Notes: a model not told the origin generated them from the sequence alone. A DNA stretch of 52,681 nucleotides from Ignavibacteria bacterium (GCA_025451455.1 JANWKI010000047.1:1-52681), one strand, 5' to 3'. Positions 21,696 through 46,872 are shown, counted from the stretch's first letter. Made by a program: numbers and translations.

Positions 21696-21967
21696 GAGAT
21701 AAGCACAATATCGTGATTTCTAATATGATAAGAAATTTAGAAATTCAGTATTATGTTACGGGAAGCGGTACATTTGCATCACACCTGTTAAAAAAGCAAA
21801 AGATCCAGCCACAAATTCCACAAATTATCACCAGGAAGAATGTATATAATTTTCAAAAAATGTAAAACTTTGAACAATATAACAGAACACTAATTGGTTT
21901 TTCAATTTAGAATAAAATTGTTATTATTGTTCATAAGGCTCTTTGTAATAATCCGGCTTTGCCGGAT

Positions 21968-22140
21968 AGGATATTTTCGGTTCACTTTAATAACTGTGAT
22001 CAAAAGGGAACCGGGTTCAATGCCCGGGCTGTCCCCGCAACTGTAATAAAGAAGAACGGTCATCTTAAGTCACTGTCAGGTTTTTTTGACGGGAAGGCTG
22101 ACCGTGAATTGCTTTAAAGCCAGGAGACCTGCCGGAAATA
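21968..22140 (+). promoter_or_regulatory. Cobalamin (B12) riboswitch aptamer
   Basis: Core AAAAGGGAACCGGGTTCAATGCCCGGGCTGTCCCCGCAACTGTAA, then AAGTCACTG....GACGGGAAGGCTG, then B12 box AGCCAGGAGACCTGCC (22119-22134). A putative P1 pairs about 21972-21980 with 22132-22140. It sits upstream of a BtuB-like receptor locus. Confidence 0.88.
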
Positions 22141-22193
22141 AAATTAATCTGTAATCTTCGTGGGCAAAGATAAACAGGATAGTTTTTCAAGGT

Positions 22194-30997: not shown

Positions 30998-31684
30998 ATG
31001 AGCGGCAAAACGAAACCCCCCGGAAAATCCGTCACTATTGAAGAAGCCAAAAAAGCCGGCGGTAAAAAATACAGGGAAAAAGTCAGAAGGGTCATTGAAG
31101 AGTATGAGAAGCTCCCTGATGAGAAAAAACACCAGATACATTTATATTATGGCTATGGTAAAGGCAAGACTACAGCTGCAATCGGCTTAAGTACCAGAAT
31201 GCTTGGAGCCGGCAAAAGAGTTGCTATTGTTGAGTTTGATAAAGGATTTGACCAATCGAAAGAACATTACTTCGAGCGCAGGGTATTTTTTAAGCTCAAA
31301 GAACTGGGCTATCCTGTAGAGATATATTCAACCGGATGCGAAAGGATGAATGAAGACGGGACCTTCCGTTTTAAGAATGCAGATGAGGATCTGCTGGAAG
31401 CTAAGCGAGCTCTCGGGATCGTGAAGGAACTTATCAAAAACGGGAAACAGGACCTGCTTGTGCTTGATGAATTTGTTGCGGCTGTCAACTATCACCTGAT
31501 ATCCGAAAAGGATTTTTTTGATATCATAGATCTGTACAATAAGAAGCGCAGATTTGAGCTTGTTATTACAGGGCATAAATTATTTGAGGGTCTCGAAGAA
31601 AAAGTTGACCTGATTACTGAAATGCGGAAAGTTAAGCATTATTTTGATAAGGGCATTCAGGCAAGAAAAGGCATTGAATACTAA
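30998..31684 (+). CDS. cobO: ATP:cob(I)alamin adenosyltransferase (CobA/CobO/BtuR type)
   Basis: ..HLYYGYGKGKTTAAIGLSTRMLGAGKRVAIVEFDKG.. P-loop variant and ..LLVLDEF..A......I.. are typical of CobA-type adenosyltransferases. Lys-rich N-terminal extension of about 45 aa. Confidence 0.88.
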   Translation: MSGKTKPPGKSVTIEEAKKAGGKKYREKVRRVIEEYEKLPDEKKHQIHLYYGYGKGKTTAAIGLSTRMLGAGKRVAIVEFDKGFDQSKEHYFERRVFFKLKELGYPVEIYSTGCERMNEDGTFRFKNADEDLLEAKRALGIVKELIKNGKQDLLVLDEFVAAVNYHLISEKDFFDIIDLYNKKRRFELVITGHKLFEGLEEKVDLITEMRKVKHYFDKGIQARKGIEY

Positions 31685-31745
31685 AAGTGAAAAGTCAAAA
31701 GTCAAAAGTGAAAAGTGAAAAGTGAAAAGTGAAAAGTGAAAAGTC
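31683..31745. repeat. Heptanucleotide tandem repeat (AAAAGTS)x9
   Basis: Nine perfect-period heptads: AAAAGTG, AAAAGTC x2, AAAAGTG x5, AAAAGTC. They begin inside the cobO stop codon and end 28 nt before the stop of the convergent gene at 31773. Confidence 0.95.
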
Positions 31746-31772
31746 AAAATGCATCCTGGCTAAGTACTTTTT

Positions 31773-42402: not shown

Positions 42403-42624
42403 AAGTTTTTTCCGTTTTTAGAGATGTATCACACTAATTTACCCCATATATTCTAATAATTCAATGCTCTGATTTTTCATAAACTTATTCGGGATATTAG
42501 TGCAATTGTCTGCAAACATTCGAGACTCCTGCGGGGTAAGTTGCTCCTGTCATTATCGGAATATATTAATATTATTATTGAAAACGAGGAAAATTTCGGC
42601 TAAAAATAACTATTGAAAAATTGC

Positions 42625-42632
42625 TATATTTG
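42625..42632 (+). promoter_or_regulatory. TAnnTTTG motif upstream of the BNR-repeat gene
   Basis: TATATTTG lies 94 nt before ATG 42727. Confidence 0.3.
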
Positions 42633-42726
42633 TGAATACAGCAGGTAAATACCTTATTAATTTGAGATAGCTTTCAGCCAAGTTGACAAATATAGCGGTA
42701 ATTCAAAAATATAAAATAAAACTTTC

Positions 42727-44982
42727 ATGAAATACATTTTTATATTCCTGATTATTTCAGTTAGTATATATTCACAAACTGTTCAGAAGGTGGATTTTGA
42801 AGCAGGCGGGTTTGTTCTTGCGCAGCTGCCAAACAAAGACGGTTCCACGATCTACGCGCGAACGGATGTAGGCGGTGTTTACAAAAAATCAGGCAGCAGC
42901 AACTGGCAGTTTATAGGCCAGTTTGCCGAAACACCGGCCGCCCTGATGGTGCAGGCAATAAACATTAATCCAAATAACCAGCAGGAGATAATAGTGGCAG
43001 TTGGAATGGATTATCTTAAAGAGGATATTGGCAGGGGATTATGGAAATCGAGTGATGAGGGAGCTTCATGGCGGCATATTCTCGGTCCCAACACCGGAAA
43101 TCCGGAAGTAAATTTCGGCGGCAATGTGTTCCGTGTTAAGCTCGGCGGTCCTTGCGCAAGATGGCATCCAACTGTGCCTAACAGGATTATCTGCGGCGGG
43201 CTTGCCGGCACTTCAGGTATGGCCAATATTTATTTAAGCGATGATAACGGCGAGAGCTGGCGGGTTATCAGTTCATCCGGCTCAATTACGGGTAATGTTG
43301 TGTGCATACAGATTCACCCGAAATTCCCCGATGAAATTTGGGTCGGGACTGACCAGGGACTTTGGATAACTCGCGATAACGGCGCCAGCTGGAGCAGTAA
43401 AATTTTCCCGGGTGAGATCAGCGGTGTCTACCAGATGATCCTTAAAGATGACGGCAAGGGCGGCTTAACAGGATTTGTAACAACGGGAAGGCTGTACAAG
43501 ATCGGGAATAATGCATCTTCAATAAAAGACTTAACATCTGCCTTCGGAACCTATTACGGTTACGGCACGGAAATGATAGGATTACAGTTTATGGATGGTC
43601 TTGAATCAAAATTTGTATGCATTATGATGGGATATCCGGCTAAAGTTACAACTAACGAAGGAGAAAGCTGGAGCGATCTGGTGAACTTCTCGCTTGAAAA
43701 ACAGTATAACCCAAAGCATACGCTTGCTACTGAAGATAAAATTTATTCATCCAACGTAATTGCATACCAGAACCCGACGAATTTTAATGTGTGGTATCTA
43801 AGCGGGGGGTCAGGACCGTTTATTTCCACCAACAAAGGAAAATCATGGAGATATAACGGCAACGGTATAGATATGACTGTGGTTTATGACGTTTCATTTT
43901 CATCAAACGGTGATATTTACATTTCAATTTCTGACTGGGGAATGGCGGTAACCAGGGAAGAACTGCTTCCAAAGATTGGAAATTACTCGAGACAATATAC
44001 GCTTAACCCTCCTCCGCCTGAAAAAAACGGTGATTCGTATATACCTAATGTTTGCAGAACTCTTGTATCAAAAGTTAATCCGAACCGTTTATTTTTAATC
44101 GGGGGCAGTGTGTTTACATATTATCCTGTGATTACCAAATCCGAAAACAGGGGAGAGCCGAATTCTTATCAAATTATGAACCCCCAGGGAATGATTTCCT
44201 ATCCGACAACCGGTCCCGGCAGTGATGCGATTATTTGCGACGGTTCAATGACAACAGACGGTGTAAATGATTACATGATATTATTAATGGGCGGGGGACT
44301 GTATGACCATAAGGTTTATGATGCAGGCAATCCGGGCGCATACTGGTATGGTGTTTATTTCAGCTCAAACGGCGGAGCCAGCTTCGAAAAATCTGTTTTT
44401 CCCGGCAGCTCGGATGAAATTTACAGGCATTCAATAGTCGGGGGAATATTTACTCCGCTTGATTATACCGGTGTTGACCCGGTAGACCCTGCAAGAGTTT
44501 ACGTATACCTTGAAGGCGGAAACGACGGTGGTGTTATGGCTGGCGGATTATTTATAAGCAATGATTACGGCAAAACATTCACGCATAAAAGTTATGTTAT
44601 CAACAACCCTGCAATAGACTACCGCAATAAAGGAGCAATTGAAATCGACCCGACTGGAAGCGGCGTTTTATGGGCAGGCATAATGAATTACGGTTTATTC
44701 AGATCTCCAAACAGGGGTGAGTCATTTGAACAAATACCGGGCTGGAGATCCGTGAGCACTCTTGATTCAAAGGGCAATGACGTTGTTGTTTTCGGAATGA
44801 GGAATTCCGATGAGTTTAACAAGATATATTTATCCAGAGACGGCGGCTCATCATGGGAGCATATTTATTTAAGCGGTTATGGTGTAATACCCTCGGTGAG
44901 AAAACTTGATTTCAGTGATATCAAGGACGGTGAACTATGGATTTCAACAGGCGGTCAGGGATTATTTATATATAAATTTTAA
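42727..44982 (+). CDS. BNR/Asp-box repeat protein (sialidase/GH74-like beta-propeller)
   Basis: Signal peptide. At least seven Asp-box motifs (SxDxGxSW/TF): SSDEGASW, SDDNGESW, TRDNGASW, TTNEGESW, STNKGKSW, SNDYGKTF, SRDGGSSW. No T9SS CTD. Confidence 0.85.
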   Translation: MKYIFIFLIISVSIYSQTVQKVDFEAGGFVLAQLPNKDGSTIYARTDVGGVYKKSGSSNWQFIGQFAETPAALMVQAININPNNQQEIIVAVGMDYLKEDIGRGLWKSSDEGASWRHILGPNTGNPEVNFGGNVFRVKLGGPCARWHPTVPNRIICGGLAGTSGMANIYLSDDNGESWRVISSSGSITGNVVCIQIHPKFPDEIWVGTDQGLWITRDNGASWSSKIFPGEISGVYQMILKDDGKGGLTGFVTTGRLYKIGNNASSIKDLTSAFGTYYGYGTEMIGLQFMDGLESKFVCIMMGYPAKVTTNEGESWSDLVNFSLEKQYNPKHTLATEDKIYSSNVIAYQNPTNFNVWYLSGGSGPFISTNKGKSWRYNGNGIDMTVVYDVSFSSNGDIYISISDWGMAVTREELLPKIGNYSRQYTLNPPPPEKNGDSYIPNVCRTLVSKVNPNRLFLIGGSVFTYYPVITKSENRGEPNSYQIMNPQGMISYPTTGPGSDAIICDGSMTTDGVNDYMILLMGGGLYDHKVYDAGNPGAYWYGVYFSSNGGASFEKSVFPGSSDEIYRHSIVGGIFTPLDYTGVDPVDPARVYVYLEGGNDGGVMAGGLFISNDYGKTFTHKSYVINNPAIDYRNKGAIEIDPTGSGVLWAGIMNYGLFRSPNRGESFEQIPGWRSVSTLDSKGNDVVVFGMRNSDEFNKIYLSRDGGSSWEHIYLSGYGVIPSVRKLDFSDIKDGELWISTGGQGLFIYKF

Positions 44983-45003
44983 CGGGTTTAATATTTTCCC
45001 GCC

Positions 45004-45101
45004 GTCGTTGGTCTACGACTCTTCGAGTCGAAGACTCGTAGAAGTGTTTCCTCCCGGTTTACAACCCGGCTTTGACGGGCTCTGACGTGGTCACCAACGA
45101 C
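45004..45101. repeat. Structured GC-rich element: 9-bp closing stem enclosing a 29-nt near-perfect palindrome
   Basis: GTCGTTGGT (45004-45012) is the exact reverse complement of ACCAACGAC (45093-45101). CTACGACTCTTCGAGTCGAAGACTCGTAG (45013-45041) folds into 12 bp with one C-C mismatch and a triloop. Confidence 0.85.
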
Positions 45102-45140
45102 ACTGGAGAACGAATTGCATTAACTTTGTGCTTTGTGTTT

Positions 45141-45201
45141 GTCATGCTGAGCGAAGTCGAAGCATGAAGGCTGACGCCCTTCGTCTCCGCTCAGGGCGAC
45201 A
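45141..45201. repeat. Inverted pair of GTCA-stem-GAGCGAAG-type hairpin elements
   Basis: GTCATGCTGAGCGAAGTCGAAGCATGA (stem TCATGCT/AGCATGA) is followed by the related element on the opposite strand; the reverse complement of 45172-45201 reads GTCGCCCTGAGCGGAGACGAAGGGCG... Confidence 0.85.
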
Positions 45202-45364
45202 AGGTGAGGCAGTAACATACCAGCATTTCTCCCTTGCATATTCCACTAGCATTTATATCTTGTAGTATTATATGCCTATGGCATATAACCTTATTTGTCA
45301 GGCAGATTCTCCGCAGGGGACTCTCAAGTCACTAACAACTACAGAGAAAGGAGGAATTTAAGTT

Positions 45365-45550
45365 GTCCGGCTGTTGCACCATAAAACGAATCACTGGAAA
45401 ATGAATATTTTGTTTAATTTTAAGCTCAATTCAATGTCCAGCTGTTGCACCATAAAACGAATCACCGGAAAGATGAGAAAATTGTTCAATTGTGACCCAA
45501 ATTTACAGTCCGGCTGTTGGCGGATGAAAATCACTCGAACCGCTGGACGA
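45365..45550 (+). repeat. Tandem triplication of a 72-nt unit (36-nt conserved core plus 35-36-nt diverged half); CRISPR-like in layout only
   Basis: Core copies GTCCGGCTGTTGCACCATAAAACGAATCACTGGAAA (45365-45400) and GTCCAGCTGTTGCACCATAAAACGAATCACCGGAAA (45436-45471) match at 34/36. A degenerate third copy, GTCCGGCTGTTGGCGGATGAAAATCACTCGAACCGCTGGACGA, starts at 45508. The intervening segments align without gaps at 22/35 positions by hand count. Confidence 0.9.
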
Positions 45551-45637
45551 CCGTTTATTCCAGTATCAGAAAATACGGAGAAAAGCGCGTTCAGGTTGTA
45601 ATAGCCAAAATTTTGTGAAAATGAGCTCCTGCAAAGC

Positions 45638-45819
45638 TTGTCACACCAGCGAAGGCTGGTGTCTAGACTGTAAAACCTGATTAATAAATAATTGATACCT
45701 GCACGATAAATGAAAACAGAGCTATTAAAGTTCTTCTCATTTCGTACATCTTCGCAGATCACTAAAAATATTTCTCTAGATGACCCAGAGGGTACCCCCA
45801 GCCTTCGCTGGTATGACAA
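45638..45819. repeat. 22-nt inverted repeat pair (TTGTCAYACCAGCGAAGGCTGG) flanking a ~140-bp AT-rich segment
   Basis: 45638-45659 TTGTCACACCAGCGAAGGCTGG matches the reverse complement of 45798-45819 (TTGTCATACCAGCGAAGGCTGG) at 21/22. The first copy also forms a local 8-bp hairpin, ACACCAGC-GAAG-GCTGGTGT. Confidence 0.9.
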
Positions 45820-45912
45820 ACAAATATTGACTGTTTTCATAATCCACTCCCGTTTTTATTTTTTCAGTTAGTGTATTTCGGGGATAGCACTTTTTTAATT
45901 ATATTTGTAAAT

Positions 45913-46872
45913 ATGGAACCACTCGTAATATCAACATGGAAACACGGAATACCAGCCAATGAAAAAGCGTATGAGATACTATCCAGCGGAGGTAACTCCC
46001 TTGATGCCGTTGAACATGGCGTAAGGGTTGCCGAAGATGACCCGGCAGTCCTGAGCGTGGGTTATGGCGGCTTGCCCGATGCAGAAGGGCGCTTAACGCT
46101 TGATGCGGCAATCATGGACTGGAATGCGCGGATTGGGTCAGTAATCTGTATGGAACATATCAAGAACCCGGTTTCTGTTGCAAGGCTGATACTGGAAAAG
46201 ACCGAACATGTCTCCCTTGCAGGTGAAGGAGCATATAACTTTGCTATCACAAACGGTTTCCAGCCCGATATTCTGCACACTGATACATCTATCAAAAAGT
46301 ATATAGAATGGAAAAAGGGGCAGTACGGAAGGTCACAGGAATTCCACACAGATGAATACAGGGTCAAAACTGGTAACGGACTCGGCATCAATGAAGACGG
46401 CAATCATGATACAATAGGGATGGTAGCAATTGATAAAGAGGGTCATATATCAGCATCCTGCACAACAAGCGGTACTGCATGGAAGCTTCACGGCAGAGTT
46501 GGCGATACCCCTATAATTGGCGCGGGACTGTATGTTGAGGGTGATGTTGGCGGCGCAGTATCAACCGGGCGCGGGGAAGAATGCGTAAGGGCATGCGGAA
46601 GTTTCCTTGTTGTTGAAATGATGGGCAGGGGAATGTCACCGCAGGAAGCATGTGAATATGCATCAAAACGGGTTATTAAGCTAAATCTGCTCTCTCATAA
46701 AAACCGCGACCATGATTACCAGGTAGGTTTCATTGCGGTCAATATAAAGGGTGAATATGGAGCAGCAAGCGTCAGAGAAGGGTTTGAATATGCTGTTTTT
46801 GATAAAGGTATTAACACCCTTAATAAAAGCAAATATATTATGAACGAAAAATACGAGATAACAGACCTTTGA
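45913..46872 (+). CDS. Glycosylasparaginase / isoaspartyl peptidase-type Ntn hydrolase (peptidase T2 family)
   Basis: The track ORF begins at GTG 45871. ATG 45913 (MEPLVISTWKHG..) fits the family N-terminus better. Autoprocessing site ..GNHDTIGMVAIDKEGH.. with the nucleophile Thr after HD. ..HGRVGDTPIIGAGLY.. and ..STGRGEE.. are also present. Confidence 0.85.
   Translation: MEPLVISTWKHGIPANEKAYEILSSGGNSLDAVEHGVRVAEDDPAVLSVGYGGLPDAEGRLTLDAAIMDWNARIGSVICMEHIKNPVSVARLILEKTEHVSLAGEGAYNFAITNGFQPDILHTDTSIKKYIEWKKGQYGRSQEFHTDEYRVKTGNGLGINEDGNHDTIGMVAIDKEGHISASCTTSGTAWKLHGRVGDTPIIGAGLYVEGDVGGAVSTGRGEECVRACGSFLVVEMMGRGMSPQEACEYASKRVIKLNLLSHKNRDHDYQVGFIAVNIKGEYGAASVREGFEYAVFDKGINTLNKSKYIMNEKYEITDL

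Follow-up and report, generated by a model that had tools for sequence, protein, structure and literature searches.

CRISPR arrays are among the described systems closest to the locus reported here. According to the authors of CRISPRCasFinder, bona fide arrays are expected to show very low similarity between spacers, candidates with one to three spacers hold the lowest level of evidence, and terminal repeats are often degenerate at their 3' end (PMC6030898). As the criterion for an array we used at least two near-identical direct repeats of ~23-50 nt placed at regular intervals. A first-pass annotation of the window, by which we mean the whole 52,681-nt stretch of DNA that was analysed, had drawn attention to a short intergenic array of this kind and had read it as a repeat of 24 codons that encodes a pair of small Cys-Cys peptides. 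We find instead that the array is probably a real, lineage-restricted, non-coding imperfect tandem repeat that arose in a hypervariable, repeat-rich gap by local duplication of an older element of ~45-50 nt. Most likely it is neither a functioning CRISPR nor a peptide gene; that is, it neither stores foreign spacers nor is translated.

A repeat search of the window recovered two direct copies of 37 nt that are 35/37 identical (95%) and start 71 nt apart (Table 1). These copies are equivalent to the pair of 36-nt cores, identical at 34/36 positions, that had been placed at 45365-45400 and 45436-45471. The 25-nt exact core, GCTGTTGCACCATAAAACGAATCAC, is present twice in the window and gave no matches in 100 shuffles. 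The degenerate third unit that had been proposed at 45508, with spacings of 71 and 72 nt, was confirmed: it starts at 45507/45508, 72 nt past unit 2, and is diverged. Units 1 and 3 have GTCCGGCTGTTG exactly in common; beyond this, all that unit 3 has kept is AATCAC and CTGGA, which flank an indel. With its minimum score set to 30, Tandem Repeats Finder missed the array. The same region is present in an independent assembly of the species (L001, GCA_044448925.1) with 2 differences in 4321 nt, none of which falls within the repeat, and an assembly artefact is thereby excluded.

The segments between the cores are of similar length, 34 and 35 nt, and align to each other without gaps at 22/34 positions, a value matched by 1/5000 and 0/5000 composition-preserving shuffles in two runs. 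The two would-be spacers are therefore paralogous, as had been suspected, and their homology supports the view that the true unit is a diverged tandem duplication of ~72 nt. The similarity reaches into the bases that stand just before the three cores, AATTTAAGT, AATTCAATG and AATTTACAG. Divergence across the unit is uneven, as shown by a comparison of the identity of the cores with that of the linkers (Fisher p = 0.002). Thus, while the array has the repeat dimensions of a CRISPR array, with two 37-nt repeats at regular spacing and a third, degenerate unit, its spacers are not mutually unrelated.

Table 1. Features in and around the tandem repeat, in window coordinates.
Feature	Position	Strand	Observation
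Lineage-restricted intergenic stretch holding the repeat, ~860 nt	44994-45853	.	no alignment to most relatives
Element X, ~100 nt, structured	45005-45100		just after BNR gene; fold -34.8 kcal/mol
Hairpin module with GTCATGCTGAGCGAAGTCGAAGCATG	45138-45203		fold -31.3 kcal/mol
Hairpin	45268-45288		
AAAGGAGG, Shine-Dalgarno-like motif, judged incidental	45347-45354	+	strong Shine-Dalgarno motif before ~1/36 genes
ORF1, TTG start, 13 codons, MSGCCTIKRITGK, coding not supported	45363-45404	+	log-likelihood -0.40 per codon
Unit 1 core, TGTCCGGCTGTTGCACCATAAAACGAATCACTGGAAA	45364-45400	.	repeat search; 25-nt core present twice; nhmmer E = 7.6e-11
Antisense ORF, 149 aa, over units 2 and 3; orphan, no coding sign	45391-45840	-	self hit only
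Linker 1 ('spacer 1')	45401-45434	.	homologous to linker 2, 22/34 ungapped
ORF2, 66 aa, coding not supported	45401-45601	+	codon usage; no homologs; frame lost in L201
Unit 2 core	45435-45471	.	35/37 identical to unit 1
Linker 2 ('spacer 2')	45472-45506	.	last bases, TTACAG, also in sister-species locus L201
Unit 3: GTCCGGCTGTTG, then AATCAC, then CTGGAC	45507-45549	.	sole unit with an ortholog found (L201:2-48)
22-nt inverted repeat, 95% complementary, flanking 138 nt	45638-45659 and 45798-45819		element fold -61.7 kcal/mol
TATATTTG, Bacteroidetes-type -7 box	45900-45907	+	5 nt before asparaginase ATG 45913

The window is a contig of an uncultured Ignavibacteria bacterium, and the best matches to its asparaginase are Ignavibacteria MAGs at no more than 88% identity. 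Its larger ORFs are ordinary chromosomal genes that encode T9SS-sorted proteins, TonB-dependent receptors, NusB, TsaD, glycosyltransferases and MetH, the last of these behind a cobalamin riboswitch. The riboswitch (21961-22150; Rfam RF00174, 115.5 bits) precedes an unannotated 351-aa ORF and genes for a TonB-dependent receptor, a DUF6580 protein and the B12-dependent methionine synthase. Elsewhere on the contig, a 7-nt tandem repeat, AAAAGTG, extends over 9.6 copies (31683-31749, 95% matches) from the stop codon of a corrinoid adenosyltransferase gene.

The repeat lies in a gap of 930 nt between a BNR/sortilin-like gene (42727-44982) and an asparaginase-family/amidohydrolase-like operon. Within the lineage-restricted stretch only the right part, from 45661, could be aligned, to a single relative (L202) whose contig begins there; the flank of the sister-species locus L201 aligns to the window from 45854 on. 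On the other side, homology between the window and three BNR loci (L200, L204 and L063) stops at 44980-44993, just past the stop codon, and in these and two further loci (L064 and L065) the relatives of the BNR gene have a different downstream context. Most relatives have the asparaginase gene and an S15 peptidase gene as direct divergent neighbours ~145 nt apart; in the window the distance is 3.5 kb (42403-45912), taken up by the BNR gene and the 930 nt. At this same gap, L003 and L206 carry an ORF of 473-478 aa along with small ORFs; such different insertions at one spot in other lineages identify it as a hot spot for rearrangement and insertion. The repeat occupies a synteny breakpoint, with a translocated BNR/sortilin gene on one side and the asparaginase operon on the other. 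The contigs of the three closest asparaginase relatives end within the gap: that of L201 at the unit, that of L202 (JGI 3300045478) immediately past the left arm of the 22-nt inverted repeat and that of L203 (SRR17234075) inside element X, which fits repeated sequence that breaks assemblies. A further contig, L205, starts 37 nt upstream of the asparaginase gene.

Upstream of the asparaginase gene, TTTTAATTATATTTGTA (45893-45915), which includes a TAnnTTTG -7 box, is conserved in many Ignavibacteria (L002-L012 and L201-L207). The proximity of this box to the start codon implies a near-leaderless mRNA for the asparaginase/amidohydrolase operon. Since the promoter abuts the ATG and the repeat is more than 300 nt upstream, the repeat is not part of the 5' UTR of that gene.

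Evidence on the age of the repeat comes from L201, a contig from Logan run SRR33230374 that represents a sister species and starts inside the array. The asparaginase of L201 shares 93% protein and 84% DNA identity with that of the window, and four-fold degenerate sites are 45% identical. The start of the contig, ATTACAGTGCAGCTGTTGGCAAATGAAAAAACAGCCCAATCACTGGACAG, aligns to the tail of linker 2 and unit 3 with 36/46 identity and a 1-nt gap, and the local alignment score of 37 compares with a maximum of 31 in 300 shuffles. The element therefore predates the split of the window and L201 lineages and has stayed beside the asparaginase operon. Conservation of unit 3 exceeds the value of 0.454 at four-fold degenerate sites (binomial p ~1e-5), so that some constraint or a non-vertical history is likely; conservation of the core could also come from gene conversion or mobility of the unit instead of function. 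The parts best kept in all four units, counting that of L201, are a 5' block, (T)CCRGCTGTTG, and a 3' block, AAYCRCYGGA. With a profile built from the four units, copies were recovered from the window, L001 and L201 and from nothing else in the sequence searched, which was mostly Ignavibacteria loci. None of 61 asparaginase loci from GTDB species representatives carried the repeat at up to 9 mismatches or by nhmmer, and L206 and L207 have a different insertion and no unit.

Local duplication, the reading we favour, would account for these features as follows. An ancestral element of ~45-50 nt, consisting of the 5' and 3' blocks around an A-rich middle, stood upstream of the asparaginase operon before the window and L201 lineages separated, as the L201 ortholog shows. 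Slipped-strand mispairing or unequal recombination may then have copied the element together with its flank, giving rise to the 71/72-nt period and the homologous linkers. Thereafter the core remained similar and the linkers diverged to ~63% identity, a difference that we would put down to purifying selection on the core, to gene conversion over short tracts, or to the two together. Of the units, the two with a length of 71-72 nt would be well preserved, and the diverged one would be older.

Within this reading, and since the identity of the core between species well exceeds that of four-fold degenerate sites, we give about even odds that the core is a cis-acting module at the DNA or RNA level, for instance a site bound by a protein or a portion of a small transcript; otherwise it would be neutral junk homogenised by conversion. 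A bolder reading, which we regard as unlikely, holds that the ~45-nt core would be a new non-coding element under selective constraint, belonging to one Ignavibacteria clade and amplified in tandem at this locus, with a predicted role as a protein-binding site or small-RNA module. It draws on the excess of unit 3 identity over that of four-fold degenerate sites and on the much better preservation of the core, relative to the linkers, in every unit. In a variant, the array would be CRISPR-derived and 'frozen', retained for some role outside immunity.

Searches for an RNA or DNA function brought out nothing specific. Rfam 15 returned no family at its gathering score, the best sub-threshold match over the repeat reaching 17 bits against a gathering score of 73, and no tRNA or tmRNA relics were found. 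Folds of the whole region were not significant on either strand (z = -1.8 and +0.65), a single unit folds weakly, and RNAalifold on the four units yielded 8 pairs with no compensatory change. At three junctions the terminal CYGGA of one unit can pair perfectly with the TCCRG that opens the following unit, but this pairing is not kept in L201 and, of the three hairpins, just one is more stable than shuffled sequence (z = -2.6); we consider the complementarity suggestive only. Scans with promoter and terminator consensuses gave matches at chance level, and a Bacteroidetes-type TAAATTTG on the minus strand (45505-45498) belongs to a motif that occurs 73 times in the window. Comparison by eye with parS, IHF, sigma-54 and attC consensuses found none that fits.

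The gap contains several further small elements that fold strongly. A homologous copy of element X is found in L203 (1-110), directly before the asparaginase promoter, and the L203 contig starts inside it; X looks like a small mobile or recombining repeat. A fragment of the GTCATGCTGAGCGAAGTCGAAGCATG module recurs in L063 (8839-8869), upstream of the BNR ortholog. The 22-nt inverted-repeat element, located ~95 nt ahead of the ATG of the asparaginase gene, is consistent with a MITE-like element or, possibly, with a segment that inverts and thereby disrupts assembly. Finally, CTAGATGACCCAGAGGGTACCC (45776-45797) is common to the window and L201 (66-88, 21/22); it directly follows the unit in L201, lies 225 nt downstream of unit 3 in the window, and is probably another small hairpin element.

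Such surroundings raise the question of whether the array is itself a mobile-element fragment or a cluster of binding sites (MITE, REP-like or transposon ends) that landed in the gap along with the neighbouring hairpin elements. We consider this improbable. The gap is full of such elements (X, the 45138-45203 module and the inverted-repeat element at 45638-45819), X and the GATGACCCAGAGGGTACCC motif occupy different relative positions in L203 and L201, and the contig of L201 comes to an end right at the unit, as would be expected if the unit were repeated in that genome. However, neither the 52.7-kb contig nor the other sequence searched, mostly Ignavibacteria loci, yielded a further copy of the unit, and the copies present are direct repeats arranged head to tail instead of being scattered. 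The fold of the unit is weak where those of its neighbours are strong, and the contig carries no transposase.

To a similar degree improbable is a fossil or orphan mini-CRISPR, with two old spacers of which one was duplicated from the other, a degenerate terminal repeat, and cas genes that are or formerly were elsewhere. Repeats of 37 nt with spacers of 34-35 nt at regular spacing are as such a relic would have them, as are a last unit that keeps its 5' 12 nt and decays toward its 3' end, the weak complementarity of the repeat ends (TCCGG with CTGGA), the breakage of three relatives' contigs within this intergenic region, and the conservation of the terminal unit in the sister species. Nevertheless, the spacers are homologous to each other, unlike those of bona fide arrays, and their homology runs on into the bases right before each core. 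An unselected array would not hold its cores at 95% identity while its spacers drop to 63%. Neither cas nor defence genes were identified in the 45 kb upstream or the 7 kb downstream; Pfam and PADLOC scans of ORFs on the 52.7-kb contig detected no cas, transposase, integrase or PADLOC defence proteins. With its homologous spacers and a contig lacking cas genes, the array is thus most likely not a genuine CRISPR, and on this point we agree with the doubts of the first-pass annotation.

The 25-mer core had no exact match in viral, GTDB-representative genome or JGI metagenome collections, three shorter or variant core patterns had none in viral contigs, and the array region found nothing beyond chance (E = 3) in phage and plasmid collections, which hold few or no Ignavibacteria phages or plasmids. 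A relaxed tandem pattern, GTCCRGCTGTTG followed after a gap of 45-75 nt by GTCCRGCTGTTG, gave more than 120 metagenome and at least 14 viral loci among the matches listed, all of them unrelated. About half of the matches listed have a period of 69 nt (23 codons) and the remainder are other unrelated coding repeats; those of 69 nt we take, by eye, to be MORN-type protein repeats (GPAVE...WYLNGKLH). The reverse complement of the repeat (GTGATTCG...AACAGC) may resemble Bacteroidetes type II-C repeats; with no cas9 on the contig, this is a lead only.

Least tenable is the reading of the first-pass annotation, a translationally coupled pair of small ORFs that encode basic Cys-Cys repeat peptides, a uORF and a second ORF coupled to it, which we judge very improbable given that codon usage, a six-frame search and an indel in L201 all speak against it. 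The sequence features on which it was built are present as described: AAAGGAGG lies 8 nt before TTG 45363, ORF1, which translates as (M/L)SGCCTIKRITGK, ends in a TGA that overlaps the ATG of the 66-aa ORF2 (ATGA, 45401-45404), and units 2 and 3 are in one frame. A strong Shine-Dalgarno motif precedes only ~1/36 of the genes in the window, where AGGAGG occurs 10 times on both strands; such sites are rare in this genome and the motif therefore carries little weight. Units 1 and 2, in contrast, are out of frame with each other because of their 71-nt spacing. Two of the three core differences are indeed synonymous in the proposed frame, whereas ~10/11 linker differences are non-synonymous by hand count. 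The claim that unit 3 differs from unit 1 by indels in multiples of three stood up, as the MAFFT alignment contains a 6-nt indel, and this favours the coding reading.

Coding potential was assessed with a codon-usage model derived from 34 long ORFs in the window, and 199 segments of 66 codons from real genes served as the reference. The log-likelihood per codon of ORF2 was -0.19, with ORF1 lower still (Table 1), compared with 0.284 +/- 0.091 for the real-gene segments, of which 0/199 scored as low. The values of both ORFs were inside the off-frame distribution or lower still. When the six frames of 45340-45620 were translated and concatenated, the query matched nothing at E <= 10 among 5.8 billion predicted proteins, and a set of 1.84 billion representative proteins contained no match to the 149-aa antisense ORF other than itself. 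The ORFs at the repeat had no family match in Pfam or NCBIfam, the gene caller of the collection called no gene there in L001, and no RiPP-type or other partner enzymes are encoded nearby.

Comparison with L201, a single partial ortholog, argues further against the 66-aa ORF. The first-pass annotation had itself stated that a frame broken at an orthologous locus while the nucleotide repeat is retained would count against a coding role, and L201 has a 1-nt indel and shows no third-position bias. In the conserved 28-nt block shared by L201 and unit 3, 4/4 substitutions change the amino acid in the proposed frame. The C-terminal part of ORF2 is not conserved in L201, where the sequence downstream of the unit is unrelated.

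The value of this locus is that of a worked negative: a two-spacer 'array' with a Shine-Dalgarno motif and overlapping ORFs that is yet, most likely, neither a CRISPR nor a peptide gene. The deciding tests were cheap, consisting of spacer-spacer similarity, Shine-Dalgarno usage in the same genome, a codon-usage likelihood and one ortholog. The sole unexpected point is the above-neutral conservation of the core. Should this conservation reflect function, the core would mark a cis element or sRNA, small and particular to one clade, of an uncultured lineage, which would be of local interest only.

Several known systems share features with the locus. Pairs of leader peptides or uORFs with translational coupling are alike in having a Shine-Dalgarno-like motif, a short ORF and an ATGA stop-start overlap; unlike them, the array is more than 300 nt upstream of a promoter that itself abuts the downstream ATG, has no coding signature, and does not conserve its frame. 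REP/BIME sequences and MITEs share the long intergenic setting near hairpin-forming short repeats, some of which are mobile among relatives, but the units here are direct tandem copies that are weakly structured and are not dispersed in the sequence searched. There are also the CRISPRCasFinder candidates of evidence level 1, among them tandem repeats misread as arrays, which the array resembles in its regular, near-identical direct repeats, diverged last repeat, two 'spacers' and lack of nearby cas genes, and for which similarity between spacers is a flag of a false array (PMC6030898). Many false positives at that level sit inside repeat-protein genes, whereas the array here is intergenic and carries no coding signal. 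Genuine orphan CRISPR arrays are alike in the dimensions of repeat and spacer, in the degenerate terminal repeat and in a terminal unit that persists across related species. The array differs from them in that its repeat has no matching repeat in the collections searched and no protospacer match, and, while genuine orphan arrays acquire their spacers independently, the spacers here are paralogous.
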